DNA of 64,000 nt from a virus. Where the stretch lies: IMG/VR virus record IMGVR_UViG_3300046804_002762, positions 31,681 to 95,680 of that record. One strand, written 5' to 3'. Positions 1 to 19,845 of this stretch are shown here, piece after piece (positions within the stretch are counted from its first letter, which is position 1; every line of letters begins with the position of its first letter). Made by a program: the position numbers and the translations under genes. The notes beneath the pieces are model-generated. The model was not told where the DNA came from, searched no databases, and was given only the letters and a program-made list of their open reading frames with translations.

Positions 1-12
1 TAAAAAAGAAGA

Positions 13-117
13 ATAAATAATTACACCTATTGAGACTGCAATTTCATAGGTAAGATTAGGTGCTCTTATGAGCACCTTTTCTATTATAAATATTAGTGCA
101 GTCTCAATAGAATAGAA
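13..117 (+). promoter_or_regulatory. Dual late-promoter / hairpin / terminator module upstream of the HNH gene
   Basis: ATAAATA 13-19; stem ACCTAT(25-30)/ATAGGT(46-51); hairpin AGGTGCTC-TTAT-GAGCACCT then a T run (58-80); TATAAATA 85-92; 97-110 is the exact reverse complement of 27-40. Confidence 0.75.
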
Positions 118-753
118 ATGAATTATCTAAAGGTTTATTGTAATCTAATCAGGAAAGCAGAGAACAGAATTCCTCCTGAAGATTATACGGAAAAGCACCA
201 TATATTTCCAGTAAGCATTTACGGAAAAAATGATAAAATTGCAATTCTTACTGGAAGAGAGCACTATATCGCACACGAATTGCTGGAAAGAATTTTTATA
301 AAACGATATGGATTAAAGGACAAAAGAACTATTAAAATGATAAACGCTGTTATTGCTATGAAAGGTAATGGTAATTATATTAATTCATATCTTTATGAGA
401 AAAGTAGAAAAAGATTTTCAAATTCTTTAAAAAGTATTCCAAAATCGGAAGAGCATAGGAAGAAAATGTCAGAGGCTTCAAAAAGAAGATATGAGAATAT
501 GGAGGAAAGAAAAAAGACATCAGAGCAGATGAAAAAATATCATAAAAATATTGATACAACTGGAAAAAATAATTCGAATTATAATAATGGATGTTATTAT
601 GAATTAACAAGTCCACTTGGAGAAATAGGTTATACGAATAAATTGGATGTTTTTTGTAAAAGAAATGATTTATCCAGGTCTGGTTTTTGGAAAGTCATAA
701 CATATAAACAAAAGAAAGACCACAAAGGATGGTCGGTTAGAAAACTGGACTAA
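118..753 (+). CDS. HNH homing endonuclease with NUMOD3-like DNA-binding repeat
   Basis: EKHHIFP...G.ND...LT.REHYIAHELL HNH motif; KSEEHRKKMSEA NUMOD3-like; AT-rich. Confidence 0.85.
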   Translation: MNYLKVYCNLIRKAENRIPPEDYTEKHHIFPVSIYGKNDKIAILTGREHYIAHELLERIFIKRYGLKDKRTIKMINAVIAMKGNGNYINSYLYEKSRKRFSNSLKSIPKSEEHRKKMSEASKRRYENMEERKKTSEQMKKYHKNIDTTGKNNSNYNNGCYYELTSPLGEIGYTNKLDVFCKRNDLSRSGFWKVITYKQKKDHKGWSVRKLD

Positions 754-808
754 TAATAGACAATCTGTAAAACCTGTGCTATGATATAGATACAAATTAA
801 TTAAACGG

Positions 809-1456
809 ATGGATTACAAAAAGTATTCTCTTGAAAATCTTGAGAAGTGGATTGAAGACGCAATCAATAGTAGTGAAGCATCGCCACAAGAAATTTATGA
901 TGTTATCAAAAATGTAGTGAGTGATAACTATTATTGCTACAAAAATCACACTGAAAGGTGTTATGAACTTCTTGCTCTTCTGAATGGTAATGGGAGGGGA
1001 CATATTCCAGCATACGATGAATATGTTGAGAAAAAAGAAAATCTTGTATGTGATAAAGATGATAAGTCTCCCAAGTGTCAAAAAGCATGGAGTGATTTTT
1101 GGGAAGAGAATTATTATCCTGAAGAGCATAATCAATACACTGAAGAAGAACTGAACGCAATGTGCGACAAGGCAGCATCAGACCAAGAAAAACAAAAGTG
1201 TCGTGAATATAACCTGCGTGAGGCAGAGTATTATGACAAGAGAGCAGAACTTGATGCTAAAAAAGATAAAGTAGTCAAATGGAAACTTCCTGTTGAGATT
1301 GATGGTATGAGCGGTGAGTATTATGTTAACTTCCCTGATGACTTGATGGAAGCAGCAAATATTGGAGAGAATGATATGGTAGAATGGATAGATCAAGGCA
1401 ATGGGTCATATTTTTTGCGTAAAGTAACTAAACCTATTGGAATTGATGAGTGCTGA
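809..1456 (+). CDS. Hypothetical protein with C-terminal AbrB/SpoVT-like domain
   Basis: C-terminal VNFPDDLMEAANIGENDMVEWIDQGNGSYFLRKV resembles the AbrB fold. Confidence 0.55.
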   Translation: MDYKKYSLENLEKWIEDAINSSEASPQEIYDVIKNVVSDNYYCYKNHTERCYELLALLNGNGRGHIPAYDEYVEKKENLVCDKDDKSPKCQKAWSDFWEENYYPEEHNQYTEEELNAMCDKAASDQEKQKCREYNLREAEYYDKRAELDAKKDKVVKWKLPVEIDGMSGEYYVNFPDDLMEAANIGENDMVEWIDQGNGSYFLRKVTKPIGIDEC

Positions 1457-1615
1457 TGGTTAAATTCATCAATGCTTGTTTAAATGGATTGATATACAGC
1501 ACGGGAAATATCTGTGTTGTTGACTATCCAAATCCATCTGTGGTAAAATATTATGAATCTGGTAAGTCCTGTTATGTCAACGGGATTTTTTATACTAAAT
1601 GTGAGGATAGATTAA

Positions 1616-1840
1616 ATGGCTCTTTCGCAACAAACCCTGGAACATCTTCTGGAAGCAGAATCACACCTTCGTACTGCAATTAAATCCGCGGCTTCTAATG
1701 AAAAACCTTTGGTAGTTAAACAACTCTCACAACTTCTTTTTGATATAGAGCAATGTAAGAAGTTTGAGGAATTGATGGATATGATTGATAATAGAAACCC
1801 TGGAAGTAGGGGATCTTTTGGTTCTTTATTTGATGACTAA
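1616..1840 (+). CDS. Hypothetical phage protein
   Basis: 74-aa ATG ORF in the + strand gene run. Confidence 0.7.
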   Translation: MALSQQTLEHLLEAESHLRTAIKSAASNEKPLVVKQLSQLLFDIEQCKKFEELMDMIDNRNPGSRGSFGSLFDD

Positions 1841-1928
1841 GAAGTGTTAAGTAATTCCAAAGACATTCTTAAGAATTCTTTATTTTGATAGATAAGATGT
1901 TATGATAGCAACACAATATTCGCGAATT

Positions 1929-2093
1929 ATGACCCTTCCATCAAAAAACAATAATAAACTCACCGATTCAGAATTTAATGAAATGGTTGCTCTTAAGAAT
2001 GCAATCAACTATGATATTGCTCAAGTTGTTCCTGAAAAAATGGAAACATTTACGGAATATTTTGTAAGGAGTTTAAAAGAACGTGGCGGTTGA
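1929..2093 (+). CDS. Hypothetical phage protein
   Basis: ORF 1902-2093; internal ATG (MTLPSK) is the more likely start. Confidence 0.55.
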   Translation: MTLPSKNNNKLTDSEFNEMVALKNAINYDIAQVVPEKMETFTEYFVRSLKERGG

Positions 2094-2095
2094 AT

Positions 2096-2142
2096 AAGTG
2101 TCACAAGGGGGGATTTACAAGTCCCTTTTTTTACTCTATAGT
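2096..2142 (+). promoter_or_regulatory. Sigma70-type promoter with upstream AAGTGTCACA box, overlapping a terminator-like hairpin
   Basis: TTTACA(2114)-17 nt-TATAGT(2137); GGGGGATTTACAAGTCCC followed by a T run. Confidence 0.6.
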
Positions 2143-2163
2143 CTTTTTAAGATAAACTCAAAA

Positions 2164-2571
2164 ATGAATTTCAAAACAGTTTTGCTTGCGTCAGTGTTTG
2201 TTGCACCAGTTCCTGTATTTGCACAACAAACAAACATTTATCAAGTCTGTACTAACTATCAAGAGAATTATTCACCTGGATATTATGATAGTTATGGAAA
2301 TTATGTTCAGGGAAGAGTAAATACTGAAAGTTATAATGTTCAATGTGGAACTGGTACATATTATCGTCCCAACGGAGGTAATGTTTATCAATCACCAGTA
2401 GTTGCTCCTGTGGCACAACCTAGAGGATATTGTTCTCCTGCAAGAACTACTCTTGGTGGACTTTTAGGAGGAGGAATTGCTGCTGCAGTTTCTAAAAAAA
2501 ATGCTTGGAGTTGGGCAATTCCTCTGGGTGTAGTACTGGGAACTGGTGCAGCAAACGTAAATTGTTACTGA
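2164..2571 (+). CDS. Secreted/membrane protein with C-terminal glycine zipper
   Basis: Signal-peptide-like MNFKTVLLASVFVAPVPVFA; GGLLGGGIAAA...GVVLGTGAA. Confidence 0.65.
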   Translation: MNFKTVLLASVFVAPVPVFAQQTNIYQVCTNYQENYSPGYYDSYGNYVQGRVNTESYNVQCGTGTYYRPNGGNVYQSPVVAPVAQPRGYCSPARTTLGGLLGGGIAAAVSKKNAWSWAIPLGVVLGTGAANVNCY

Positions 2572-2679
2572 ATATGGAAGCGGTACAGAGACCTTGTGAC
2601 AATTGAAGAAGTGGCACACAAATCTCCACAAGAGGCACAAAAGACCCTATAGTACATTTGTTGATTTGAGGAACCTACC

Positions 2680-3090
2680 ATCGCCACTCGCTCTCGCATC
2701 GGTCTTGAACTTAAGAACGGCAGTATTCTGTCTGTCTATCATCACTGGGATGGTTATCCTGAGTGGTTGGGTCGTATTCTTACTACTCACTACAATACTC
2801 GTGCTAAAGCAGCAGAACTGATTGATGGTGGTGATATGAGTTCTGCTTGGACTAATGCTGGTTGGAATAACGAAACCCGCGCACAAGGTCCGCTGTATTA
2901 TACCGAGCGTGGTGATGAGTTTATTGCCCCTCGCCTTGATGCTGATCTGTGTGAGTATCTGAATAACACTAGTGAAGTGTATGCTTATGTCTTCCGTAAT
3001 GGTCAGTGGGTATGCTATAATATGAATCTGTTTGATGATACTAAACTCCCTGAAATCGTTGAAATTCCCTCTGGTGCTCTTGCTGTCTGA
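2680..3090 (+). CDS. Phage hypothetical protein (xATRSRIG...YHHWDGYP), apparent ATC start
   Basis: Frame is open from ATC 2680 after GAGGAA; in-frame TGA at 2662-2664; same frame as the tracked 2767-3090 ORF. Confidence 0.7.
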   Translation: MATRSRIGLELKNGSILSVYHHWDGYPEWLGRILTTHYNTRAKAAELIDGGDMSSAWTNAGWNNETRAQGPLYYTERGDEFIAPRLDADLCEYLNNTSEVYAYVFRNGQWVCYNMNLFDDTKLPEIVEIPSGALAV

Positions 3091-3093
3091 CCT

Positions 3094-3285
3094 ATGAAAA
3101 CTTCTACTGCTATTGGTGTTATTGCTGGTGCTATTGTTATTGTAACTGTTAGCATCTTATTTGAAGCGTGGTTGCTTGGACTGATTCTATCTTGGTTTAA
3201 TGTATTCTTGACCTTCGGGCAGAACCTTGCTATTGTGGTTCTTGCTAATATGATTTTCAAAAACTCTGGGAGTTCTTCTAAATGA
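3094..3285 (+). CDS. Small membrane protein
   Basis: Hydrophobic 63-aa ORF abutting the previous stop. Confidence 0.7.
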   Translation: MKTSTAIGVIAGAIVIVTVSILFEAWLLGLILSWFNVFLTFGQNLAIVVLANMIFKNSGSSSK

Positions 3286-3669
3286 ATCGTAAGTACATCA
3301 CCGTATTTGCATTAGGTTTCCTTGCTATGATTGGTTGGAATGTCTTTCTAGTACAACGCGATGAGCGAATGTATGATGCTTATTATCGCACAAAAGCGAT
3401 AGAGAACCTCAAAACTCCTCCAAGTAATCAAATTAGGTGATTTACTTTCTTCTCATTTCTGCGGCATTTGGATGGTTCTTTTTTGTACTATTCTCTAAAC
3501 ATTTTGATTACCTAGACGAACACAAACGCAAATGATTCCACAACGTATTCGAGAACTGATTATGAACGCAGAACGTGAAAAGATTGCCCGTGAGTTTTGG
3601 GAGGAAATTGAACAGGAAGCAGCAAAACTTGAAGTAACTGTGGACTATTATCTTGCTGAGTTTTACTGA
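3282..3669 (+). CDS. Small hypothetical ORFs 3282-3440 and 3532-3669
   Basis: Read by eye: MNRKYITVFALGFLAMIGWN... and MIPQRIRELIMNAEREKIAREFWEE... Confidence 0.55.
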
Positions 3670-3741
3670 TGACTTTTATTCTTGGTATGCTTACTGGTAT
3701 TCTTTTGACAGTCGGAACATCCCTTATTGTTGCTTCCAACA

Positions 3742-3770
3742 TTGACAAAGAAGACAATCAATTCTAAACT
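3742..3770 (+). promoter_or_regulatory. Sigma70-type promoter
   Basis: TTGACA-17 nt-TAAACT, then GAGG and ATG 3794. Confidence 0.7.
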
Positions 3771-3793
3771 TAAGAGGTAAATTACACAAAAAA

Positions 3794-4033
3794 ATGGCAC
3801 AAAAGTTTCTCTATATCTTGGACTATTTCGTTCCACAGTTTCAATCGGAATATGGTGGATTGCTTAACGTAATCGCAGAAAATGATGAAGAATGTTTTGA
3901 TGTTGTTGTTGAATGGGATAATGAAACCTGGACAGAATACTACAGCAAACTACGAGAAAACATTGTAAAAGCACAACGCTTTCCTCTTCTTGAAAACGAA
4001 GAATCTTGTGTAGTTGAATCCTTTACGACCTGA
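3794..4033 (+). CDS. Hypothetical phage protein
   Basis: 79-aa ORF downstream of a promoter. Confidence 0.7.
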   Translation: MAQKFLYILDYFVPQFQSEYGGLLNVIAENDEECFDVVVEWDNETWTEYYSKLRENIVKAQRFPLLENEESCVVESFTT

Positions 4034-4183
4034 TGATTGACACATCTTTGAATCGTCTTGAGTTTAATCTGAAGCAACAGTATCAAGAACGCATTACATT
4101 TTTACAACAAAAGATCACAGAACAACAGCACGAAATACTGAGACTTCAGGAGCAAATCAAATATATGTCAAAAGATAAGTTCT

Positions 4184-4477
4184 ATGACTGTTGAACTTCC
4201 ATCTTCTTTCTTTCATTCTCCCCCAAAAGGATATTATTATGAAGCAACTGAGTTCAAACGAAATGTTATCAGTATTTGGTTATGTAATACTCGCAAGTTT
4301 GACTATAATAATGGTGCTGAAACCAGAACTATACACTCCTTCTACAACACCAAAACCAGAGAATATTTTGCCCCGATCAATAGTAGAACCATCGGTGCTT
4401 GTGTAAATATCAAGAACACGCGGAACTATACCGCGATGCCGATAAACCAATCAATTCTGGAGTCTTGTTTCGTATGA
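4184..4477 (+). CDS. Hypothetical phage protein
   Basis: 97-aa ORF with overlapping start/stop junctions. Confidence 0.7.
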   Translation: MTVELPSSFFHSPPKGYYYEATEFKRNVISIWLCNTRKFDYNNGAETRTIHSFYNTKTREYFAPINSRTIGACVNIKNTRNYTAMPINQSILESCFV

Positions 4478-4650
4478 TCATCGAAGAGGGAACCGAAGTC
4501 ATTTACAAAAGCATTTCTGGAGTGATTGCATTTGCCTCTGATCAATATGTCTCAATTCTTTTCAGAAAAGGAAAACACAAATCTCAAGATGTGAAGATCG
4601 TAGTTTATCAAGAAGATTTTAAGAATGTTGTGCTAGCAGATGGAAAATGA
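4474..4650 (+). CDS. Hypothetical protein (MIIEEGTEV...)
   Basis: ATGA overlap with the preceding stop. Confidence 0.6.
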   Translation: MIIEEGTEVIYKSISGVIAFASDQYVSILFRKGKHKSQDVKIVVYQEDFKNVVLADGK

Positions 4651-4928
4651 AGAAGAGTAATAACTGGTGGCGATGGTGGGCAAAATCCATCGGAGAGAAA
4701 GCATCCAAATGTGATAAAGAAAGCGACACGGTTGCGGTTATTCGCACCGTGATTTTTGCTACTTATTTGATTACAAACTGCTTTATAGTGGCAGGCGTAA
4801 TTAGGCACTGGAATGATAAACCTCAAATTGAAATCTTTATTGAAAATCCTTATGAAGTACCTGGTACAGTATCTCCAACCCAAAAAGAAGGGTTACTCCA
4901 AGCAAACCGCAACTTTGCTTACGATTGA
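4647..4928 (+). CDS. Membrane protein
   Basis: WWRWWAKSIGEKA followed by a TM segment. Confidence 0.65.
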   Translation: MKKSNNWWRWWAKSIGEKASKCDKESDTVAVIRTVIFATYLITNCFIVAGVIRHWNDKPQIEIFIENPYEVPGTVSPTQKEGLLQANRNFAYD

Positions 4929-5017
4929 TGATGCAGAATTCTGGTGTAAAGTGATAGAAAAGAAAGGTGCAAAGGATATAAAGATATTGGTTCAATAAAT
5001 AACTAAAAAGTATTAAA

Positions 5018-5185
5018 ATGAAACCAACACCCAGACAACTTCAAGAAACTTATAAAATTCACGATCAACTCGTAGAGCATCTTATCTCTGAAGGATATGC
5101 TGATGATGAAAAATCTGCAGATAACATTATCAACGGAATGAGCGAAACTTGGTTTAATTTGATTATTAACGATAATAATTCTTGA
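5018..5185 (+). CDS. Small late protein
   Basis: ATAAATA at 4995-5001; 55 aa MKPTPRQ...HLISEGYADDEKSADNIINGMSETW. Confidence 0.6.
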   Translation: MKPTPRQLQETYKIHDQLVEHLISEGYADDEKSADNIINGMSETWFNLIINDNNS

Positions 5186-5216
5186 TTATTTCAAATATAT
5201 CAAAACAAGAAGAAAG

Positions 5217-5807
5217 ATGCTAACATTCAAAGAGTTTTATAGTATTTGTGAAGGGAAAAAAACAAAAGATCTTCCATATGTAGTTCCTGGTACTTATCAA
5301 GAAAAAGATGGTGTAAAGATATACACTCTCAAGAGAGATGATGGACAAAAGAGAGAACCAATCAAGTCTGCAAAGAAAATATCCAAAATGCTTGATAAGC
5401 AAGGTGGAATTGGTGGTAAAGCAATAAAAAAAGCAATAAAAAAAGCAGGAAAGAAAGTTAAATCAGTCTCTGAAGATCTGGAAGCAAGAAGACAGCAACT
5501 TGCAAAAAGACAAAGAGATAATGTTTCTGCATTTAGGGAAAGATCCATTGCATCAGTAAATGCACAGAGAGAAAGAGTTGCAAATCAAAAAGAACGCGAA
5601 GAGTTAAAGAGGGAAATTAAGAAAGAACTGCAGACAGAGCAGCATCCCACAATGCAACCCAATGAATATAACAAACAGGTAGCAAGACAATCTGCACGTT
5701 GGAAAGGTATGCAAATCCGTCAGGCACATGGTGAAATGGAGCACGAAGCAGGAGCACAACTAGCAGCAAAGAAAGCAAGAATGAAAGCAATTATGTCAAG
5801 AAAATAG
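5217..5807 (+). CDS. Basic protein, putative internal head protein
   Basis: N-terminus MLTFKEFYSICE resembles the T4 capsid-targeting sequence; K/R-rich; downstream of a late promoter. Confidence 0.55.
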   Translation: MLTFKEFYSICEGKKTKDLPYVVPGTYQEKDGVKIYTLKRDDGQKREPIKSAKKISKMLDKQGGIGGKAIKKAIKKAGKKVKSVSEDLEARRQQLAKRQRDNVSAFRERSIASVNAQRERVANQKEREELKREIKKELQTEQHPTMQPNEYNKQVARQSARWKGMQIRQAHGEMEHEAGAQLAAKKARMKAIMSRK

Positions 5808-5810
5808 TAC

Positions 5811-5910
5811 ATAAATAATGATGCCTTAATTGACTCGCATCTTTAAGGTTGGAGAGGAGAAATCCTCTCCTTTTAATATAAATAATACTGCGAGTCAATT
5901 TAAGAGCAGA
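5811..5910 (+). repeat. ~100-bp regulatory module, near-identical to 15514-15612
   Basis: ATAAATA...GACTCGCA...GGAGAGGA-GAAA-TCCTCTCC-TTTT...TATAAATA...TGCGAGTC. Confidence 0.9.
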
Positions 5911-5913
5911 ACT

Positions 5914-5999
5914 ATGGAAATCCAAAAGAGTATTACTATACCTATTATTCTTATGAAGAATGGGGTAGAGGATATATTGGCAGTATGGGAAAGAATTGA
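5914..5999 (+). pseudogene. Frameshifted, truncated GIY-YIG-like endonuclease remnant
   Basis: MEIQK, then in a shifted frame EYYYTYYSYEEWGRGYIGSMGKN*; ends at the first cassette repeat. Confidence 0.6.
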
Positions 6000-6192
6000 T
6001 AAAAACTTTGGGGCCTTGAAAGTGTTCTAATAATGTAAGCACTCAAACTCAAATGGAAGACTTTGATGACCTTTTAGTAGAAGAGTTTTCTTCTTTTGAC
6101 TTTCTTGAAGAGATGAATGAAGGTCTCTTTGAAGAGCAAGATAATTTGAAATCCTTCAACAACTATTTGAACTCCAATTACGATTGCTGATT

Positions 6193-6583
6193 ATGACTCC
6201 TGACACTTACACTTTTTCTGGCGATGCTGTTACCTTCCTTGGTTTGGTTGGTGTTGCTTCAACGCTTCTTATTGTTGTTACTTCTTTCCGCAGGTTTTTC
6301 AACAGTCCTTACAATGTTCGTGTGACACCTAAAGTTACTCAAGAGACCACCACTGAAATTACTGAATCCTGAACTAATGACTCAAACTGTAAACGTCCTG
6401 CCTCATCTTGAAGAACTGAAAAATGCTTGGCGTAAGCAAGATTTTAAGTTCAGTTCAACACAAAATGAAGAGTATCAAATGCTTCTTCAAGCACGACGAG
6501 AAAGGGTTAGGTGGTTCTACGAAACTGGTCAAGTATGTAAAGTCAGTAAATCTGCACAAGATAAACTGAAGGAAGACAACTAA
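6193..6583 (+). CDS. Two small hypothetical ORFs: 6193-6372 (membrane) and 6377-6583
   Basis: Consecutive ORFs; the first has a TM segment. Confidence 0.65.
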
Positions 6584-6655
6584 ACAATGGTGCTGCAGTT
6601 GAGAAACTGAACACTGACTCTTGACTAAATACCTAAAAAGACTTATTCTGTAGAG

Positions 6656-7258
6656 ATGAAAACATTTTCTCAATTTTGTGCAGAAGCATATGATGCTTCC
6701 TTTATGTCTGGAGCACAAATTCGCAGAACAGGCGAAGGTGGGCGTATTGGATCTTTGAGAAAAAAGACTGCCCCCGAAAAGCGTAGAATGGCACAGGCAA
6801 AACCAGGAGAAGAAAGAAAACCAACAGAATATAAACCAAGAAAGGATATTGGTACTCAAAGACAAGCATCTACAAGAGTTCAACAACCAACACAAGAACG
6901 TGGATCTGCTGATGTAAAAGCAAAAGCAGCAGCGGCAGCAAAAGAAGAAAGAAAGAAAGCAGCACTTGCTAGAATTGCTGCAAAGAAAGGTGGAGCAGCA
7001 CCAGCAGCAGAAAAACCAAAAGCAAAAGAAGCAGAAAAGACAGCAACTAAACTACTTGCAAAGAAGAAAACTGAAGTAGATTTAAGACCTGCTGATCAAC
7101 CAAAACGTCCTGTTGTTGGTATGTCAAGAGAGAAAAGAAAGGACATTACAAGAAGAGGTCATAGAAAACTTGAAACTCTTGTAAGACAATCTGAGGCAGA
7201 AAAGCAAGGTAAGAAACCAGAGCAAGTTCAACTTAAGCACGACTATAGACCTAAGTAA
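6656..7258 (+). CDS. Lys/Ala-rich basic protein, putative internal head protein
   Basis: MKTFSQFCAE versus T4 CTS consensus MKT(Y/F)xEFIxE; TAAATA at 6626-6631. Confidence 0.65.
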   Translation: MKTFSQFCAEAYDASFMSGAQIRRTGEGGRIGSLRKKTAPEKRRMAQAKPGEERKPTEYKPRKDIGTQRQASTRVQQPTQERGSADVKAKAAAAAKEERKKAALARIAAKKGGAAPAAEKPKAKEAEKTATKLLAKKKTEVDLRPADQPKRPVVGMSREKRKDITRRGHRKLETLVRQSEAEKQGKKPEQVQLKHDYRPK

Positions 7259-7310
7259 TCTAACTCTGGGGCCTTGAAAGTGTCCCTGTAGTATAAGCAC
7301 TTCCTTCATA

Positions 7311-7788
7311 ATGGACCGAATCGAAATCCAACGCGCACTCTATGATGCTCGCAATGAGTATGCGAAGGCAAAGAAATCTGTAGAGTTTTGGACTCGTGAG
7401 ATTTCTTTCTTGAAAGAGTGTGAAGACAACCTCAATAAAGGTCGCACTGGTGATTGGTTGTTTAATGAAATGTTTGGCGATACTCCACTCGCTGAAGAAG
7501 TTTATGGGGGTTGATTAAACCTCATCAGCACGCTCAGATTAACCTCTAAGCGTGCTATTTTTGTCTTTAGATACCAAACCACTGAGAACAATGAATTACA
7601 TTCAGATCCCTGATTATGTCTATGAGCGTATGCTCAAGACTCTTCAAAATGGCGTCGATGTGTGCTATAATGTAGATCATTCCTCGGATATTACTGAACA
7701 GTCTCCGAGTTATGCAAATGGTTACAGTCGCGCTACAATGCAGAGTGTGATCTCTGATTTGAAATACTGCAAAGAGCAACAGAACTAA
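7311..7788 (+). CDS. Two small hypothetical ORFs: 7311-7514 and ~7591-7788
   Basis: Lie between repeat copies 7261 and 7788. Confidence 0.65.
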
Positions 7789-7823
7789 ACTCTGGGGCCT
7801 TCAAAGTGTCCTTATATTAGATA

Positions 7824-9065
7824 ATGATTCCAATGCAAATCCAACTTCGCCCTCATCAAGAACGCGGTGTTGCTGCTATGCAAAAGCACCCTAAAGGTCA
7901 ACTGATCGTTCCAACGGGAGGAGGAAAAACTCTCAAGATGATCTATGATGCTCTGCGCGAGTTGCAGTCTGAAACTCCCCAGACCATTGTTGTTGTTGCT
8001 CCTCGCATTTTGCTTGCTGAGCAACTTTCTGCTGAGTTCCTTGAGTTTATCACCAACGCCAAGGTTTTTCACGTTCACAGTGGCGAAACTCATCACGAGT
8101 CTTCCACTCGCCCTCGTGAGATTCGTAACTGGGTTGATGCTAATGCTGGCAATCATCGCCTGATTGTAACCACCTACAATTCTCTGTCGCGTCTCCAAGT
8201 AGCAGAGATTGATGTGGATACGATCTACTTTGATGAGGCACATAACAGCGTTCAGCGTCATTTTTTCCCTGCAACTGAGCACTTTGCTGCTAATGCACGT
8301 CGCTGCTACTTTCTGACGGCAACCCCAAAACATTCTCTTGCTGTCGGCAAACCAGGGATGAATGATGCTGCTGTTTATGGTCAGGTGATCTGCAAAGTTC
8401 CTGCTCCTGAGTTGGTTGAAGGTGGATACATTGTTCCCCCTAAAGTGATCGTCAAGCAACTGCCTATGGTAACTGGTAAGCAGACCAACTTCGACCGTGA
8501 TTCGGAGAATCTGCTAGAAACCATTGATGACAATCAAGTCGGCAAGATTTTGATCTGCGCTAAGGCAACCAAGCAGATTGTTTCTCTGGTTTCTGAGACT
8601 GACTTCTGTTCTGAGTTGGAGTCTCGCGGTTATTCTTGGATGTATATCACGGCAAAGACGGGTGCTGTCATCGACGGTAAGAAAGTGAACCGTGAGGTAT
8701 TCTTCGACACGCTATCTGCCTGGGGTAAGGATAACGATAAGAAGTTCGTTGTTCTCCACCACTCCATCCTGGCAGAAGGTATCAACGTGTCGGGTTTGGA
8801 AGCAGTTCTCTTCCTGCGTAATATGGACTTTATTGGTATCTCCCAAACTATCGGACGCTGTATCAGGTTGCATCACGATGATGCCAAAGGTCTGCGCGAT
8901 GGACGTATCGAACCTGGCAACCTTGCTCAGTATAGCAAATCGTTCGGTCTTGTTTGTATTCCCATTTACTCAAAAGTAGGAATCGCTACTGCCCGCGCAG
9001 TTCAGTCTGTCGTTGATACGATCTTTGAGAAGGGCGAACCTGCCATCAGCACTGTGAGGCGGTGA
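7824..9065 (+). CDS. Superfamily 2 DEAH helicase (Res-III-like)
   Basis: LRPHQ Q-motif, PTGGGKT, DEAH, TAT, EGINV, QTIGRCIR. Confidence 0.9.
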   Translation: MIPMQIQLRPHQERGVAAMQKHPKGQLIVPTGGGKTLKMIYDALRELQSETPQTIVVVAPRILLAEQLSAEFLEFITNAKVFHVHSGETHHESSTRPREIRNWVDANAGNHRLIVTTYNSLSRLQVAEIDVDTIYFDEAHNSVQRHFFPATEHFAANARRCYFLTATPKHSLAVGKPGMNDAAVYGQVICKVPAPELVEGGYIVPPKVIVKQLPMVTGKQTNFDRDSENLLETIDDNQVGKILICAKATKQIVSLVSETDFCSELESRGYSWMYITAKTGAVIDGKKVNREVFFDTLSAWGKDNDKKFVVLHHSILAEGINVSGLEAVLFLRNMDFIGISQTIGRCIRLHHDDAKGLRDGRIEPGNLAQYSKSFGLVCIPIYSKVGIATARAVQSVVDTIFEKGEPAISTVRR

Positions 9066-9182
9066 GTCTCACAGTAGACTCAAGGCCCTGACTGGACTGA
9101 AAACCTGATTTTTCTGCAATTCTACCTGAAGGGTGTCATAGGTCATCCTCCGCAACCAAATCAACGATTTTTTGGAAAGTGT
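9061..9182 (-). repeat. Non-coding element, inverted homolog of 18521-18641
   Basis: Reverse complement shares ACACTTTC, TGCGG(A/G)GGATGACCTA and GAGAC(T/G)CACC at matched spacing. Confidence 0.75.
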
Positions 9183-9192
9183 AGAATAGGGC

Positions 9193-9221
9193 TTGAAATC
9201 CCTACCCAAAGTTGTTAAACT
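9193..9221 (+). promoter_or_regulatory. Sigma70-type promoter
   Basis: TTGAAA-17 nt-TAAACT. Confidence 0.6.
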
Positions 9222-9252
9222 ATCTCCTGTAGTTGCTTTTAGCACAAACACA

Positions 9253-10239
9253 ATGACTATTATTTCTATTCCCCTGAAAGGCGTTTCGCCTCAACTTCGC
9301 GCTGAAATTGAATCTAAACTTCCCGAACCTCTTAAAGTTCCTGGTTGGAAGTTTAATGGTTATCAATGGCGTTTGCTGTCACAGATTAACACCAAAGATT
9401 CTGAAGGAAACACTGACAATAGTGTTAGAATCTCTGGAACTGGTGACAATGAGACCTTGCAGATTTCTCTCCGTAAGGGTATTGATGTAAATAAACTTAC
9501 CCCATCAATTTATCCCAACGATAACTTGATGAATGGATTCAATAGGATTAAAAATCTTCTTGAAATTGGATACAAAGAGTGGATCTTTGCAGAATATGTT
9601 GAAGATGAATCTACTCGCAGTGAGTTTCAAGAATCTTTTGAAGAATGTTTGGATGACTTTCGCGCCGCTGCAAATGCGGGAGATGGTCAGAAAGTAATCA
9701 GCGACAAAGAAGTAGAAGAACTTGCCAGAAAGAGATTTGGGCATCGTAAGGATCAGAGTAAGCAATCTATTGCTAAATGGATTCGCACTCTTGATCTTAA
9801 TTGGAGTGGTCAAAAGATTGATGGTGTAGCTAACAAAGTCTCTAAAGATTTTACGCGCAAAGGTGTAATTGAATCATACAATCGTGATGAAGCACAACAG
9901 TTTCTAAACGATAATGGTATTGGTGCTGATCTTCTTAACACTAAAGATTCTACTCGTGTTGCACGTCTTTATCCTCAAATTATGAGGAACTTTGTTAAAA
10001 ATGGTGTAACTATGGATCTTGCATTGTTTGATAGTGACGCTTGCTCTCACGAAGAACTTGATAATCGCCAAAAAGAAACCCTTGATGAACTTAAAGAGTA
10101 TGATGAGTTGGTTATGCAATATGCCGCAAAGCGTATGCTTATGATTGGTATTCATCCTTGGAACATTATTGGTTCAATCTCTCAAAAGATTGGTGTTGAA
10201 GAACAGAAACTGGAAAATGGTTTGGTTCCTGTAGAATGA
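9253..10239 (+). CDS. Protein with probable ParB/Srx-like N-terminal domain
   Basis: L..SLRKGID...P...LMNGFNR motif; ATG 9253 follows the promoter. Confidence 0.5.
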   Translation: MTIISIPLKGVSPQLRAEIESKLPEPLKVPGWKFNGYQWRLLSQINTKDSEGNTDNSVRISGTGDNETLQISLRKGIDVNKLTPSIYPNDNLMNGFNRIKNLLEIGYKEWIFAEYVEDESTRSEFQESFEECLDDFRAAANAGDGQKVISDKEVEELARKRFGHRKDQSKQSIAKWIRTLDLNWSGQKIDGVANKVSKDFTRKGVIESYNRDEAQQFLNDNGIGADLLNTKDSTRVARLYPQIMRNFVKNGVTMDLALFDSDACSHEELDNRQKETLDELKEYDELVMQYAAKRMLMIGIHPWNIIGSISQKIGVEEQKLENGLVPVE

Positions 10240-10412
10240 AAGAAGGATTTACAATGTTCAAAGACACCTATGCTGCTGTTCCTTACGGGAATCAGTATCT
10301 TATCATTCACAATGGTCAGCAACTTGAGAAACTGTGTAGGACTGAAAGTTCTGCACGGAAATATATCACTGACCATAGGAAAAGTGTGTCATTAGGCAAA
10401 CTTCCAATGTGA
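10236..10412 (+). CDS. Small hypothetical protein
   Basis: MKEGFTMFKDTYAAVPYGNQYLIIHNG; ATGA overlap. Confidence 0.6.
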   Translation: MKEGFTMFKDTYAAVPYGNQYLIIHNGQQLEKLCRTESSARKYITDHRKSVSLGKLPM

Positions 10413-10465
10413 TTCTAACTTTGGGGCCTTGAAAGTGTTCCTATAGTGTAGTCACCTATTCCCAA

Positions 10466-10735
10466 ATGACTTTTTACTGGACGTTCGTTGACACTCTTGT
10501 TAAGAACGTCGCTACCATCAGTGCCATTGTTGTTGGAGTCAGTCAGTTTCTGATTCGTTCATTTAATGAGAACAATGGTCGTGAAAAAGTTCGTGCTGCA
10601 ACGCTTCAATTCCTGAAGTTTGTTGATACGCTGATTGAATTTGGTAAAGCACAACTTTCTCCTGCTGAAGTAGTAGAGCAACCTCAAGTTGTACCTGCTA
10701 CTGTTACCAAAACCCGCAAGCGTCGTTCCGCTTGA
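10466..10735 (+). CDS. Hypothetical protein
   Basis: First ORF after repeat 10416. Confidence 0.7.
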   Translation: MTFYWTFVDTLVKNVATISAIVVGVSQFLIRSFNENNGREKVRAATLQFLKFVDTLIEFGKAQLSPAEVVEQPQVVPATVTKTRKRRSA

Positions 10736-10804
10736 TAAACTGTCACAAGAGCACTTGCAATTCAGCAGGTGCTCCTTTATTGTACATTTGTTCTTGAAAC
10801 TCCA

Positions 10805-11008
10805 ATGATTTTCCTTACTGTTCCCGACCACGGTTGTGTTTATACTCTCTCGCAAGAAGATGGGGATGAGTTGTATTATGCTCCCATCTATGCAAATGGT
10901 AATGTAAATCTTGAGGAGTTTGCTCCTGTAGATTTAGATTCTGCAGATATGGATGAGATGGAACTCTTTGATATTCGCAATCGTCTTGCCAAACTGATGG
11001 AGGTTTAA
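10805..11008 (+). CDS. Acidic hypothetical protein
   Basis: ATG after TTGCAA-17-TATTGT promoter (10755-10783). Confidence 0.65.
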   Translation: MIFLTVPDHGCVYTLSQEDGDELYYAPIYANGNVNLEEFAPVDLDSADMDEMELFDIRNRLAKLMEV

Positions 11009-11058
11009 TGTAACTCTGGGGCCTTGAAACTGTACCTATAGCATAACCATTAGACAAA

Positions 11059-11556
11059 ATGACTCCCGAACAGAGATTCCAACAACTATTTGAGGAAATG
11101 TATCAACTTTGTGAAGAGCAAGGTTGGGGAGATCCTTTCAGTTATGCTCGCTCCCGTGAGATTCATCTTGCTGGTATTCTTGGGCATAAAGTAGCAGAAA
11201 CCTATTCTGGTGCTGATGCTGTGGATGAAGATGGTGAATGTGAGTATAAATCTACCATTGCCAATTCTATCAATGGGACGTATAATGGTATCAGTGTTCA
11301 AGATACCTGGGAAGAGCAAGAGCGTTATTTAATTGAGGAGAAACTTGGTAAGTATTCCAATCACTATATTGCTCGCTATGAGGGTGGCAAAGTTGTAGAA
11401 GTTTGGAAACTGACTGGTGATAATGTGCTGATGGTTCTGCTTCCTAAACTAAAGAAAGATTGGGAGCGTAAGATTCACGGTAAGCACAAAGATCCCCGTC
11501 TCTCTGGTAATCTAACTAAGAAAGAAATCCAACAGTTTGGGACTCGCATTGTATGA
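11059..11556 (+). CDS. PvuII-like PD-(D/E)xK restriction endonuclease
   Basis: GADAVDEDGECEYKS compared with recalled PvuII GNDAVDNAGQEYELKS; C-terminal WERK..G.HKD...GTRIV; similar length. Confidence 0.65.
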   Translation: MTPEQRFQQLFEEMYQLCEEQGWGDPFSYARSREIHLAGILGHKVAETYSGADAVDEDGECEYKSTIANSINGTYNGISVQDTWEEQERYLIEEKLGKYSNHYIARYEGGKVVEVWKLTGDNVLMVLLPKLKKDWERKIHGKHKDPRLSGNLTKKEIQQFGTRIV

Positions 11557-12104
11557 CGATTGATAGTGGAAAACTAATGTATTCGGAGGGTAACAATGAC
11601 GAATGTTACACTCCGTTTTATGCTGTAACTCCCATTCTGAAGTATATTCCCAAAGATGCAAAAGTCTGGTGTCCTTTTGACACTGCTGAGAGCGAGTTTG
11701 TTAAGCAAATCTCCCAAACTCATAGTGTAGAATACTCTCACATAAGTGAAGGAAAAGATTTCTTTACCTATGAACCTTTTCACTGGGATGTGATTGTATC
11801 CAATCCACCATTCACAAACAAACGTAAGTTCTTTGAGCGAGCATTATCATTTGACAAACCATTTGCTCTGATTATGACTAACACTTGGTTGAATGATAGT
11901 GCTCCGAAGCAGTTGTTTAAGGACAAGGATTTGCAACTGTTGATGTTTGACAAGCGTATGAAGTTTAACAGTCCTGATGGTCGTCCAAACGACAAGATTA
12001 CGTTCAGTTCTAGTTACTACTGCTGGAACTTTCTTCCCAAGCAAATCATTATGGAAGAACTTAACATACCAAAGAGCACATCAGAAGCAAAACTTCCTCT
12101 ATAA
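11553..12104 (+). CDS. Amino-(N6-adenine) DNA methyltransferase, small phage type
   Basis: DECYTP, VWCPFD, GKDFF, VSNPPF motif IV; ATGA overlap with the nuclease. Confidence 0.8.
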   Translation: MTIDSGKLMYSEGNNDECYTPFYAVTPILKYIPKDAKVWCPFDTAESEFVKQISQTHSVEYSHISEGKDFFTYEPFHWDVIVSNPPFTNKRKFFERALSFDKPFALIMTNTWLNDSAPKQLFKDKDLQLLMFDKRMKFNSPDGRPNDKITFSSSYYCWNFLPKQIIMEELNIPKSTSEAKLPL

Positions 12105-12139
12105 CACTAACTCTGGGGCCTTGAAACTGTACCTATAGT

Positions 12140-13036
12140 ATGAAGAACACTCACCTAGAACATCCTGAAGATAGCATCCTTACGGGTGATCTATCTGTGC
12201 TTGATTGGTTCTCTGAACCTGATAGTTCGATCAGTGTCAAGATAGATGGTGCTCCTGCCATAGTTTTTGGTACTGATCCTGAAACTGGTAAGTTTTTTGT
12301 GGGCACCAAGTCGGTATTCAACAAGAAAAAGATTAAGGTTAATTATAGTATTGAAGACATTCTGCGGAATCACGGTAACACTGTTCGCGTTGCAGAGATT
12401 CTTATTGCCTGCTTCGACAATCTGCCCCGAATTGATGGTATCATTCAAGGTGATTTCATTGGATACGGTGGAGACGACACTTATCGTCCCAACACTATCA
12501 CTTACAAGTTTCCGAATTGTGTAGAGGAAGCAATTATCTTTGCTCCTCACACTACCTATTCTGGTCCTAATTTGCGTGAGTGTGTTGCATCTTTCGGTGC
12601 AGATGTCCCTGACTGTGAGAATGTGAAATGGGTGCAACCTGAGGCATCTATTTGCCCTCATCGTGAGGATATTGAAGATGTGTGCAAGTTTGCTAAACAA
12701 ATGAGCACTCTATGTGAGTTCGTAAGTAACAAACAAGTAGCAGAACTCAAAAAAGTCATCAATTCCTACATTCGTGAGGGTAAGGAGGTGGATGAGCATG
12801 AAATTGCAGAAAATTTCGATGTTGATGTGAACCTGCTGCGACTGTGGAAGTTGGTGTATTCAATCAAGGTCGATTTGTTCTTCTTCATTGATGCTGACGA
12901 CAGTATTTCGTGTGAGATTGGTGGAAGGGAGTCTGTTCACGAAGGTTTCGTAATGACCAACAAGTTTGGTACTTACAAAGTAGTTGACCGCGCAGAGTTT
13001 AGCAGACTCAATTTTACACTTGAAAAGAGTTGGTAA
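12140..13036 (+). CDS. KxDG nucleotidyltransferase/ligase-like protein (DUF6267-like)
   Basis: HLEHPED, SVKIDGAPA, QGD, HEGFV, KVVDRAEFS. Confidence 0.6.
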   Translation: MKNTHLEHPEDSILTGDLSVLDWFSEPDSSISVKIDGAPAIVFGTDPETGKFFVGTKSVFNKKKIKVNYSIEDILRNHGNTVRVAEILIACFDNLPRIDGIIQGDFIGYGGDDTYRPNTITYKFPNCVEEAIIFAPHTTYSGPNLRECVASFGADVPDCENVKWVQPEASICPHREDIEDVCKFAKQMSTLCEFVSNKQVAELKKVINSYIREGKEVDEHEIAENFDVDVNLLRLWKLVYSIKVDLFFFIDADDSISCEIGGRESVHEGFVMTNKFGTYKVVDRAEFSRLNFTLEKSW

Positions 13037-13065
13037 CTCTGGGGCCTTGAAAGTGTCCTTATAGT

Positions 13066-13833
13066 ATGAGCACTGCACAAAGTCAAATGATTAACCAAAT
13101 CGCTGAAATGATTGTGGATGCTGCTAATGATCCACGCACCGCCGATAACATCCGCGAAATGCACAAACACCCACAAGGTGCAGAAACTTTGCGTCTGATT
13201 GTGCGTGATAATGTAGCAGGTGCTGCTGATGTAGTTGCTAATGCTCTCTGGAACAATCTCTGAAACTAAAATGACTACCACGTTCGCAGAATACGCTGCA
13301 CAGAAAGATGCACAAAACACAATCTATCTTAACATTGTTAAGTATGGTCTGATGCTATGTGATGCTCTGACCGCTGATGCGCCTGATAATTACTTCTATG
13401 AACTGGATAGTTCTGGTCGTAAGTATCATCGAATCTGGATGTACATTGGCGATCGTCGTGATAGCATCCACGCCTTTATTGATAAGAAAACAGGTTCAGT
13501 ATTGAAACCTGCAAGTGTAAAGGCACCTGCAAAGGGTGAGCGTTACAATCTCCTCTCTATTCCTTCCCGCGAGAAGTGTCTTGAGAGTGCAGATTGGTCG
13601 GGTGGTTATCTTTACGCAAAATGAACTACAAAGATCAACTGCTTCTTGAAATCAATCAAATCTGGCAGCAACTTACTGATGCTGGATGTAAAAATGCTGC
13701 TGATGGTGTAGATGCTGCGATTGCTTCTGCAGGTAATGACCTGACTAAGATTATGGCAGCGCACGATTATGCTTGCTGGCATTTACAAGAACTGGAAAAA
13801 ATGAGTTTGATTGATTCAACAATTATTGAGTGA
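13066..13833 (+). CDS. Three small hypothetical ORFs: 13066-13263, 13271-13624, 13621-13833
   Basis: First ATG lies in the repeat; second has GRKYHRI...HAFIDKKTG.V.KPAS.KAPAK. Confidence 0.7.
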
Positions 13834-13839
13834 AATGAA

Positions 13840-14337
13840 TTACTCTAACATCATAACCTTTACATAACCTTTATGTGACTTTCTATTACCTTTTGCTACA
13901 TTACATAGATGTGACTTTGAGAGATTATTCTCACGACAATACTTCGCAAGATTAGTAACTTCAATAACTTCTCCAGTTTCTTTAGTTAAAATCCAACTTT
14001 TTTCTGCTATTGTTCTACCTTCATTCTCAAACTTTTCTCTTTGAGATTTATTACCTTTCACTCCATTCTCTTTAACCTTATCTGGATTTTGTTCTCTCCA
14101 CTTTTTACCACCTTCTAAAATAACATCCATAAATGCTTTATTTCTTGCTCTTCTAAACTCTGGATTTTTTACATCACCTAAAATCATTTTGTAAGCACAA
14201 AAATCTTTATAATCTCCCAACAACTTCCACTCACAAAAGTGAAACATAGCGTGTTGAGTTGGTGTTACTTCCACAAGATTTGTTGGGTCGTCGGTCCCAC
14301 CTCTGTGTTTAGGAATGATGTGATGTTTGTGCTTCAT
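13840..14337 (-). CDS. HNH homing endonuclease
   Basis: HKHHIIPKHRGGTDDPTNLVEVTPTQHAMFH; C-terminal HTH-like NLAKYCRENNLSKSHL; TAAATA upstream on the minus strand. Confidence 0.85.
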   Translation of the reverse strand: MKHKHHIIPKHRGGTDDPTNLVEVTPTQHAMFHFCEWKLLGDYKDFCAYKMILGDVKNPEFRRARNKAFMDVILEGGKKWREQNPDKVKENGVKGNKSQREKFENEGRTIAEKSWILTKETGEVIEVTNLAKYCRENNLSKSHLCNVAKGNRKSHKGYVKVMMLE

Positions 14338-14503
14338 TTTTAACCAAAGTTGCCATTATTATTTAGCACAATATTATGCTTTTGATAACACTACCGATCC
14401 TAAACTTCAACGCTTCATTTATACGGAGATCAAAAAGATTCTCATTCAGCAAGGTAAATGGTGAGCAACAGTAACTCTGGGGCCTTGAAAGTGTCCCTAT
14501 AGT

Positions 14504-15512
14504 ATGAGAACAACCACTGAAACCAAGATGAACACCAACATCGTCTCCGAAATCTACTCCTATCACACGAATTGGAAGGAGGGTAAAGTCAACCAGATGT
14601 GGATTCAGCAAGTGAATGACAAGTTCATCGCTATTGCATACAATCCCGAAAAGAATGTTTCGATGCCTATGTCGAAACCCCGCACTTCCTACCAAGAGAC
14701 TCTCAAATGGGTTCGCGGTTGGTGTGGTACTTTCTGCACACTTCCTGCCTGATTGATTATGCTAACCTCTGGAATCTTAGTCCTGGTTGCTTACTCTTTA
14801 GGAGCAGCACAAGTCCTTCTCGTCCAACACTTTCTTCGCAAATGAATAAACTCACTAAAGCACAAAAAGAGATTCTTCTCACTCTTGAGAATGGAGATGA
14901 AGTTCTCAACTGGTCTCAACGGATGCGAGCACTTCAACCGCTGATTGATGCTGGTATTGTTTATATCAAAGAAACCAAAGATCCAAATGGTCATACAAAC
15001 AGTGTAAGAGTCGCACTGGTTGATTGATGATGAAAAACTATCGCGTTCGTGTTGAAACTAACGATGGATGTGTGACGATTTGGTATGAGAAATCCAATGC
15101 AAAGACTGCGGACAAACTGATACTCAATCGGGTATACAATCAACTCTGTGGTCTAAACATTAAAGAAATCTCTGTTAATCCCTCTGTCTGATCATGACTG
15201 ACCTTCGTTATTCTACTGGTGAGGAACTTGAGCAGTTCTTGTATGAGAAATGTCGTGAAGATGCTGACCTTCTGGCAACTATCATCAGCGAATATGTGTC
15301 CTCTCTGAGTGATAGCAAACTCTTTGAACTTGAGGACTTTCTTTCTAACAACTTTGGAGACGATTGAATTGTGAAATACGAAGTTAAAATGTATCAAGGT
15401 GGAAGAACTTTCGTTGAAGAAGTTTATGCTCCTGACCCCAAATCTGCAAGAGAGACTGCACAAGTTCGCAATCCTTCGTGTAAAGTTATTGGAGTAAATG
15501 TTTCTTTCAAGT
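14504..15512 (+). CDS. Run of small hypothetical ORFs: 14504-14752, ~14842-15027 and further <60-aa ORFs
   Basis: Closely packed + strand ORFs after repeat 14472. Confidence 0.6.
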
Positions 15513-15513
15513 A

Positions 15514-15612
15514 ATAAATAATGATGCCTTAACTGACTCGCATCTTTAAGGTTGGAGAGGAGAAATCCTCTCCTTTTAGTATAAATAATACTGCGAGTCA
15601 TTTCAAGAGCAG
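15514..15612 (+). repeat. Second copy of the ~100-bp regulatory module
   Basis: Near-identical to 5811-5910. Confidence 0.9.
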
Positions 15613-15614
15613 TT

Positions 15615-16148
15615 ATGCAAAAAGTAAGCGTTCAAGCATTGAACGAATGTTTCAATGTATCTGGCCCCGATTATGTTGAAATGCCTGAAGATTGGAAAGA
15701 TGTTGGTAATGAGTATCTATCAATTTTAGCAAGTAAAGCAGGTAAAATAAGTGCAGAAGTACAGAGAGAAAATCAAATAGGTATTTTTTCATTAACAAAA
15801 GAAGATAGGGTGAAAAATGGAAGAAAGGGAGGTTTAATTTCTGGAAATAATAATAAGAAAAACAAAACGGGTTTCTGTGGAAGAAGTAAAGAAAAGATGA
15901 GTATAGATGGTAGAAAAGCGGGAAAAATAGGAGGAAAAGTTAATGGCAAATTAACTTACGAAAATAAAACTGGTATTCACGGATTATCTAAAGAAGAAAC
16001 AAAAAGAAATGCAAGTATGGGAGGAAAAGTAATAAGTTCTCAAAGATGGAAATGTTTAGTTACGGGATTTATTTCAACCGCTGGTGCATTAGGAAATTAT
16101 CAAAAAGCAAGAGGAATTGATACTTCGCAGAGAGTAAGAGTTGAATAA
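15615..16148 (+). CDS. Basic KGG-repeat protein, probably homing-endonuclease-related
   Basis: Repeated GIFSLTKE..NGRKGG / GIHGLSKEE..ASMGG; AT-rich; late promoter; no clear nuclease motif. Confidence 0.5.
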   Translation: MQKVSVQALNECFNVSGPDYVEMPEDWKDVGNEYLSILASKAGKISAEVQRENQIGIFSLTKEDRVKNGRKGGLISGNNNKKNKTGFCGRSKEKMSIDGRKAGKIGGKVNGKLTYENKTGIHGLSKEETKRNASMGGKVISSQRWKCLVTGFISTAGALGNYQKARGIDTSQRVRVE

Positions 16149-16206
16149 TACTCAATGCAACTTTCAAATAACAGTAACTCTGGGGCCTTCAAAGTGTCCC
16201 TATAGT

Positions 16207-17001: not shown

Positions 17002-17014
17002 TTTCACAAACAAA

Positions 17015-17162: not shown

Positions 17163-17197
17163 TTCTAACTCTGGGGCCTTGAAAGTGTCCCTATAGT

Positions 17198-19088: not shown

Positions 19089-19091
19089 ATT

Positions 19092-19811: not shown

Positions 19812-19845
19812 AGTAACTCTGGGGCCTTCAAAGTGTCCTAGTAGT

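Follow-up and report, generated by a model that had tools for sequence, protein, structure and literature searches.

Much of the mosaicism in the genomes of T4-like phages is the work of free-standing homing endonucleases, and restraint of their expression is known for a few cases in coliphages and an Aeromonas phage. A locus at the start of a 64,000-nt stretch of phage DNA (hereafter the window; positions 31,681 to 95,680 of IMG/VR record IMGVR_UViG_3300046804_002762) raises the question of what kind of control is written into the leader of one such gene, and whether it acts within a single transcript or between two. A first-pass annotation had seen there two late promoters, two hairpins and a leader complementary to the first hairpin, and had proposed that a discrete RNA of about 55-60 nt pairs with the nuclease mRNA leader in the manner of an antitoxin, with pairing in cis in read-through transcripts as the alternative. 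The window is part of a 95.7-kb contig from a T4-like cyanophage, a genome fragment with an estimated completeness of 44% in IMG/VR, and its genes lie nearly all on the + strand. Elsewhere in the window, two giant ORFs of 4158 and 2483 aa (29388-41864 and 43445-50896) belong to the structural module and lie between baseplate genes.

Anatomy of the leader

The elements of the leader are collected in Table 1. Every element named in the first-pass annotation is present at its coordinates in a sequence check of the window, and the ATAAATA box, the ACCTAT/ATAGGT hairpin, the second late promoter and the 14-nt complement that ends 7 nt before the ATG had all been described exactly. Transcripts from T4 late promoters start about 6 nt past the promoter box, give or take a base. 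By this rule the predicted start of the upstream box, P1, is base 25, the sixth nucleotide past the box and the first of hairpin 1; the TAA stop (14-16) of the upstream ORF sits within the box itself. The second hairpin had been called terminator-like on account of its T run, and a terminator scan agrees, detecting the site at 58-84 (2 sites found against 0.2 expected); TTTCTATTAT lies directly 3' of the stem, and in the terminator hairpins of related copies the tetraloop is often GAAA or TTCG. The downstream promoter, P2, stands between the two complementary arms, and its predicted start falls, at the level of the sequence, on the first bases of arm A'.

The minimum-energy fold of positions 1-135 is a 14-bp long-range helix that encloses the terminator, at -41.6 kcal/mol against -19.5 +/- 3.1 kcal/mol in shuffled sequences (z = -7.08; 0 of 200 shuffles as good). 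In this copy, C1, the helix stops 7 nt short of the ATG (118) and covers no clear Shine-Dalgarno sequence; in two further copies of the contig, C0 and C2, and at many GIY-YIG loci, bulged extensions bring it to within 1-3 nt of the ATG. The spacer ahead of the ATG belongs to an element, TAGAATAGAA, that is near-invariant across the 26-member subfamily of C1 and has no canonical Shine-Dalgarno sequence, and that probably serves as a ribosome landing site of the SD-less kind.

Two trivial origins of the cassette were rejected, chance because the fold lies far beyond it (z = -7.1) and coding because no ORF spans 17-117. A scan of the cassettes in window 1-16500 against Rfam release 15 gave no match at E <= 1.

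Table 1. Features of the control cassette, its endonuclease gene and the four contig copies (window coordinates unless marked otherwise)
Feature	Position	Strand	Description
P1, late-promoter-like box (A)ATAAATA	12-19	+	ATAAATA at 13-19
Hairpin 1	25-51	+	stem 25-30/46-51, ACCTAT/ATAGGT; 15-nt loop 31-45 carrying TGAGACTGCA
Arm A, anti-leader	27-40	+	3' part of the hairpin-1 5' arm and 5' part of the loop
Intrinsic terminator, predicted	58-84	+	8-bp G+C-rich stem 58-65/70-77, loop TTAT, T-rich tail 78-84
P2, consensus late promoter TATAAATA	85-92	+	predicted start near 98
Arm A'	97-110	+	first ~13-14 nt of the P2 mRNA leader; exact 14-nt reverse complement of 27-40
Spacer AATAGAA ahead of ATG	111-117	+	joins 107-110 in the conserved TAGAATAGAA element
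Free-standing HNH-type homing endonuclease gene	118-753	+	211 aa; PHROGs phrog_655, E 2.6e-31
Sigma70-like promoter	757-785	+	TAGACA-17-TATGAT with TG extension; insert 3' end, facing the downstream gene (ATG 809)
Copy C0	genome 18150-18249		ahead of a GIY-YIG gene, 13.5 kb upstream of the window
Copy C1	12-117	+	ahead of the HNH gene
Copy C2	5811-5916	+	P1 5811-5817, arm A 5828-5839, terminator 5851-5858/5863-5870, P2 5877-5884, arm A' 5889-5900, ATG 5914
Copy C3	15514-15617	+	P1 15514-15520, arm A 15534-15542, terminator 15554-15561/15566-15573, P2 15580-15587, arm A' 15592-15600, ATG 15615

Copies in the contig

The gene behind the leader had been called an HNH endonuclease. PHROGs places it among homing endonucleases and the HH...H motif is visible, but a Pfam search of ORF 118-753 did not call an HNH domain.

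The full layout occurs at four sites of the contig, C0 to C3, and the two-box pattern TAAATAAT-N45-75-TATAAATA matches exactly those four sites genome-wide and none in a reversed control. Two of them, at 5811 and 15514, had been noted in the first-pass annotation as the same layout with unrelated sequence; both are real cassettes, and their loop, TTGACTCGCA, does differ from the C1 loop, TTGAGACTGCA, but the two copies are 96% identical to each other. Loop and leader sequences differ among C0, C1 and C2.

C2 and C3 are themselves intact and head decayed endonuclease genes. Behind C2 (5914-6030) only a 38-aa remnant ORF without relatives is left, and behind C3 (15615-16148) a 177-aa product consists of the C-terminal NUMOD-like DNA-binding part of an HNH endonuclease alone, with the nuclease domain absent (blastp E 4.5e-27 against L135:2672-3412).

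The + strand of window 5992-22732 also carries 14-15 copies of a repeat with the core CTCTGGGGCCTTGAAAGTGTCCCTATAGTATGAGCAC (for example at 14461-14511), between the small ORFs of an early-looking region. The repeat is probably a regulatory cassette of those small ORFs; the spacing of its hexamers is off the sigma70 standard, and GGGGC/GUCCC could make a small hairpin in it.

Distribution and a sister architecture

The same layout recurs upstream of related endonuclease genes at other loci. A protein search with the GIY-YIG product returned 80 loci at 40-96% identity, and the layout is present in 57 of the 60 distinct upstream regions. The HNH protein as a single-sequence query gave one unrelated-looking locus only; an alignment of the window protein with its relative in L021 returned 80 loci, and 59 of their 64 distinct upstream regions have the layout, 57 strictly and 2 with CTAAATA as P2. 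The cassette is thus common to HNH and several GIY-YIG families, in freshwater and marine cyanophages.

As a control, 265 kb of related phage DNA that had been fetched for an unrelated gene was scanned, and five cassettes were detected, all on the gene (+) strand and directly ahead of GIY-YIG-type ORFs of three kinds; within this control DNA the cassette is specific to homing-endonuclease genes. The bare two-box pattern is unspecific among viral contigs, where it matched 118 stretches, many of them in AT-rich giant viruses, and three true cassettes were left after filtering. A search of annotated phages with the cassette sequence gave short seeds only, one of which led to the cultured Synechococcus phage S-SRM01, which has the cassette ahead of a GIY-YIG gene (L364, NC_070963.1 51150-52100). 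The annotated start of that gene, gp075, at 51291 lies within the cassette and upstream of the TATAAATA box; an ATG near 51348, which leads into MVSPYRFYTYAYL, fits the family as its start.

Seven regions (L138, L155, L289, L341, L347, L352 and L354) have a second architecture, type 2, located about 110 nt upstream of the endonuclease ATG of homologous GIY-YIG and HNH genes. Here a hairpin with GTGGG..CCCAC or GGGGT..ACCCC as its stem holds arm A in its long loop; TATAAATA comes next, and arm A' stands just 5' of the ATG, with neither an upstream late box nor a terminator, so that the type-2 leader is closer to the T4 I-TevI layout. Because type 2 keeps both the pairing of arm and leader and the placement of the arm in a loop while lacking P1 and terminator, neither trait needs a separate RNA, and masking in cis appears to be the core function.

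Mobility of the unit

In most relatives the site of the HNH insert is empty: the flanking genes are direct neighbours, their stop and start codons 2 nt apart and with no promoter in between. The whole unit, P1 included, therefore arrived with the endonuclease gene. The insert in the window starts at or just before P1 and ends with the sigma70-like promoter of Table 1. An independent insert, in L238, has TTGACT-17-TATGAT at the equivalent place, and such a promoter is absent from the empty sites. The L238 insert brings another cassette and another endonuclease gene to the same site as the window insert, with a similar left junction. Since L124 and L125 encode GIY-YIG proteins that are 96% identical behind different loop/leader pairs, cassettes have also been exchanged independently of the genes.

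Covariation of loop and leader

Covariation of loop and leader, whose absence from homologs had been named in advance as evidence against the proposed pairing, is found at several levels, and compensating changes preserve the pairing in more than 100 phage copies. The 61 distinct cassettes contain 32 different leader words, and cognate arm/leader duplexes reach -20.4 +/- 1.8 kcal/mol against -9.0 +/- 3.9 kcal/mol for non-cognate pairs of different classes. Pairing scores higher on the + strand than on the - strand in 59 of the 61 cassettes, with 19 G-U pairs. RNAalifold on a MAFFT alignment of all 61 predicted no pairs, loop and leader lengths varying between classes, and the finer analysis comes from a gap-free MAFFT alignment (A3) of the 26 members of the C1 subfamily, fitted to no structure. 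Its long helix (columns 15-29/90-104) is 97.2% paired, with 7 of 15 pairs changing on both sides and 54 double-change cells, a score reached by none of 500 shuffles; slid controls come to 34-52%. For hairpin 1 the paired share is 96.7%, both sides changing at 3 of 6 pairs, and for the terminator helix it is 100%, with G-U/A-U and U-G/C-G alternations.

Since both the long helix and hairpin 1 covary, and do so with G-U wobbles, both act as RNA. The same arm, moreover, answers to two partners: column 18, a G in most members, has C as its partner when hairpin 1 forms and U when the long helix does, and this dual constraint on one column argues that the 3' arm of hairpin 1 acts as a mimic of the leader segment. 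Complementarity alone is no argument for action in trans, as a cis mask requires the same pairing.

The late-promoter boxes

The + strand of the contig has 29 ATAAATA boxes and six CTAAATA boxes, the - strand two and one respectively. The genes for portal, tail sheath, sheath stabilizer, adaptor and baseplate are preceded, at a distance of 12-41 nt, by boxes of the form NATAAATA, N being as a rule a base other than T, and the box at 13-19 thus has the form used before the virion genes of the same phage. P1 was then left out of the definition, so that a cassette needed only P2 and a core of 8 nt or more in which arm and leader match perfectly; an [AC]TAAATA box still stood at most 30 nt 5' of this core in 48 of 48 cassettes of the present architecture (type 1), against a background of 0.9% of 30-nt windows. 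P1 and the terminator co-occur without exception in the cassettes examined, and P1 is an integral part of the cassette.

The two boxes are not alike in strength of consensus, from which P1 departs systematically further than P2 does. T opens 58 of the 61 P2 boxes but 16 of the 61 P1 boxes, and C stands second in 16 of the 61 P1 boxes; an antisense RNA from P1 may for this reason be sub-stoichiometric. A T is conserved at +5 behind each box, and the sixth nucleotide after the box is a purine in 59 of 61 cases for P1 and in all 61 for P2. Several members of the C1 subfamily (L143, L145, L146, L195:3130-3249, L295, L297 and L348) have a short tandem duplication of the P2 region (TTATAAAnnnTTATAAATA), which gives one degenerate and one intact late box.

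A predicted RNA from P1 to the terminator

If transcription starts 6 nt after P1, as by the T4 rule, the 61 cassettes would yield RNAs of 49-71 nt (median 54) that fold into exactly two hairpins in 61 of 61, the first beginning at most 1 nt from the predicted 5' end in 59 of 61. The anti-leader is about 14.5 nt long on average, and at least 5 nt of it are unpaired in the predicted fold of the free RNA. The P2 mRNAs, each folded as an ensemble of its own, leave most of their first 12 nt single-stranded (mean unpaired probability 0.69). That an RNA of about 55-60 nt could pair with the leader, as the first-pass annotation had foreseen, agrees with these two-hairpin folds and with a computed cofolding gain of -13.0 +/- 2.1 kcal/mol for P1 RNA and P2 leader.

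Targets beyond the leader were sought in the contig: a search for complements of at least 10 nt to the four loops found none elsewhere, and a 9-nt loop match at window 20187 lies within coding sequence. One search of sequencing runs for this DNA retrieved 24 DNA metagenome runs and no RNA run. The literature searched contains no report of such an RNA, and in a 2025 review of phage small RNAs the only entry near a cyanophage endonuclease is CfrI. Judged from the features above, a discrete P1 RNA is rather likely to be made; whether it also represses in trans is close to an even question, on which we lean slightly to the negative. Against a strong role in trans weigh the poorer consensus of P1, the end of the C1 helix 7 nt ahead of the ATG, and the failure of the loops to match a further target in the contig.

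Proposed mechanism and alternatives

We propose that window 12-117 is an RNA-level 5' control cassette of a mobile homing-endonuclease gene that works in two layers, a proposition that we regard as evenly balanced in its entirety. In the first layer, whose logic is that already established for T4, transcripts arriving from upstream would mostly end at the terminator (58-84), and any read-through RNA would contain both arms, form the long helix and bury the leader (97-110); only transcripts from P2, which lies inside the helix, would have a free leader, so that the nuclease would be made late. This cis mask is probably functional. In the second layer, P1 would fire 6 nt before hairpin 1 and its transcription would stop at the same terminator, giving a discrete RNA of about 55-60 nt (from about 25 to about 80) with two hairpins and part of the anti-leader in the first loop. 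The loop would nucleate on the single-stranded 5' end of the P2 mRNA and the duplex would then extend, displacing the 3' arm of hairpin 1, the leader mimic; the outcome would be lower ribosome access or a substrate for RNase III, and the dose of nuclease would be throttled as the phage copy number rises. If P1 fires, both the making of this RNA and its pairing with the P2 leader are physically to be expected.

A stronger form of the second layer can be put forward tentatively, and we consider it plausible but on balance doubtful. The P1-terminator unit would encode a real and abundant late sRNA that represses the mRNA of its own element in trans, by nucleation of the loop on the 5' end and strand displacement of the leader mimic, with a private specificity for each cassette (32 leader words), and would be a governor of nuclease dose that depends on copy number. 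It would then be the first dedicated sRNA class in T4-like phages, lined up with its target in tandem on one strand and shared by several nuclease families.

The most serious alternative is a mask that acts in cis only, as in T4 I-TevI and Aeh1 mobE, with P1 weak, inactive or giving a short product that is inert. Pairing in cis in read-through transcripts, the alternative allowed by the first-pass annotation, is the documented mechanism for this class of genes (PMC2677866; PMC2790892) and is favoured by the type-2 cassettes, which pair alike with neither P1 nor terminator, and the departure of P1 from the TATAAATA consensus, far greater than that of P2, fits a weak or silent promoter. A P1 of the type-1 kind, 6 nt before the hairpin and about 55 nt before the terminator, nevertheless has no role in a purely cis model, which leaves unexplained why the box is found in 48 of 48 cassettes at a fixed distance, why it has the form of the boxes before portal, sheath and baseplate genes, why in 59 of 61 the hairpin base falls at the start predicted for P1 and why P1 and terminator always travel together in a mobile element. 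With these points on both sides, we hold the cis-only account to be possible and well founded in precedent, though doubtful as a full description of the type-1 cassette.

P1 might instead serve for transcriptional interference, its polymerases pausing or terminating a few bp upstream and occluding P2, with the short RNA functionless. The terminator tail (78-84) does abut the P2 box (85-92), some relatives have TTATAAATA directly after the stem, and both promoters are late-type; but interference does not account for hairpin 1, conserved, covarying and set right at the start site, nor for an exposed anti-leader loop, and we found no precedent for it in T4-like late transcription, so that we consider it quite improbable. 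An inverted repeat acting at the level of DNA, as terminal repeats of a miniature mobile element or MITE or as a recombination or cruciform site, would suit the shuffling of cassettes between L124 and L125 and the different cassettes and genes at one site in the window and L238, but it is very improbable and was rejected, since complementarity is kept by G-U wobbles with the + strand better in 59 of 61, the arm pairs alternately with a second partner under dual constraint on the same column, all copies have one orientation with their genes, and the insert boundaries lie outside the repeat.

The cassette is a compact and portable control unit, swapped apart from the genes that it controls, with built-in repair of the polarity that it causes. 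Should the small RNA be real, it would amount to a natural toehold or strand-displacement riboregulator with dozens of orthogonal specificities, and to the first trans-acting sRNA class for T4-like phages; should it not be, the published hairpin model still gains in detail, through the terminator, the local hairpin as an alternative fold and the boundaries of the mobile unit. S-SRM01, as a cultured carrier, makes the question directly testable.

Comparison with known systems

Late-only translation of the T4 intron endonucleases and the hairpin of Aeh1 mobE are established (PMC2790892). Dassa et al. (2009) found hairpins in 15 of 16 5' UTRs of free-standing GIY-YIG and Vsr endonuclease genes in marine metagenomic phage loci, ten of which contain TATAAATA, and read them as sequestering the RBS; the word terminator does not occur in that paper and an upstream promoter is not mentioned (PMC2677866). 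The cassette shares with these T-even masks (I-TevI, I-TevII, I-TevIII, Aeh1 mobE and the loci of PMC2677866) an upstream segment that pairs with the endonuclease leader and a TATAAATA late promoter within the helix, by which late transcripts escape, and it too serves free-standing endonuclease genes of T4-like phages. It differs from them in that a complete intrinsic terminator lies inside its helix, a further promoter of the late type always stands 6 nt before its 5' arm, that arm also forms a conserved local hairpin exposing part of the anti-leader, and the C1 helix stops 7 nt short of the ATG. The enclosed terminator, P1 and the local hairpin are none of them mentioned in the literature examined on T-even masks.

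The first-pass annotation had held that the extra promoter and terminator go beyond the I-TevI arrangement. Both are indeed integral and always co-occur, but a terminator at the 5' side of an endonuclease gene has a precedent in T4 mobE, where a promoter serving the gene downstream makes up for an intrinsic terminator on the 5' side (Wilson and Edgell 2009, PMC2790892). In both systems the terminator would hold down endonuclease transcripts and a promoter at the 3' end of the insert would restore expression of the downstream gene, the promoter at 757-785 paralleling the nrdB promoter inside T4 mobE (PMC2790892). Unlike the cassette, T4 mobE has its terminator inside the coding region and is promoterless, with neither an anti-leader helix nor twin late promoters.

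The PeSLs (promoter-early stem-loops) that Arbiol et al. reportedly described in 2010 are said to be mobile regulatory cassettes of T4-type phages, small units of terminator and promoter shuffled as modules between phage genomes like the present one, but reportedly with sigma70-type early promoters, with no arm complementary to a leader and with no tie to endonuclease genes. Both boxes of the cassette are of the late type, TAAATA, and its sole sigma70-like site is found at the opposite end of the insert, which sets it apart from a PeSL.

For the second layer, the likeness to an antitoxin that had been drawn in the first-pass annotation is a loose one, as the candidate RNA would be read from the strand of its own target and upstream of it, its loops match no further target in the contig, and the nuclease is no classical toxin. 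If the RNA is real, the RNA-OUT/RNA-IN system of IS10/Tn10, in which an antisense RNA of proven existence and action controls the transposase (PMC5006887), is the closer analogue. There, as would be the case here, the mobile element specifies a stem-loop RNA, some 55-70 nt long, whose loop and 5' side are complementary to the extreme 5' end and initiation region of the element's nuclease or transposase mRNA, a correspondence predicted for the cassette from its sequence, and in both the effect is expected to rise with copy number. The candidate RNA of the cassette, unlike RNA-OUT, is encoded on the same strand as its target and upstream of it, as an inverted repeat with no opposite-strand overlap; since both units lie in tandem on the + strand, the likeness is one of the mode of working and not of family membership. 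Set against all of these systems, there were already precedents for a long helix around P2, for a terminator and for a promoter at the 3' end, and what is new is the invariable pairing of P1 with the terminator, from which a two-hairpin RNA starting at the base of the hairpin is predicted.
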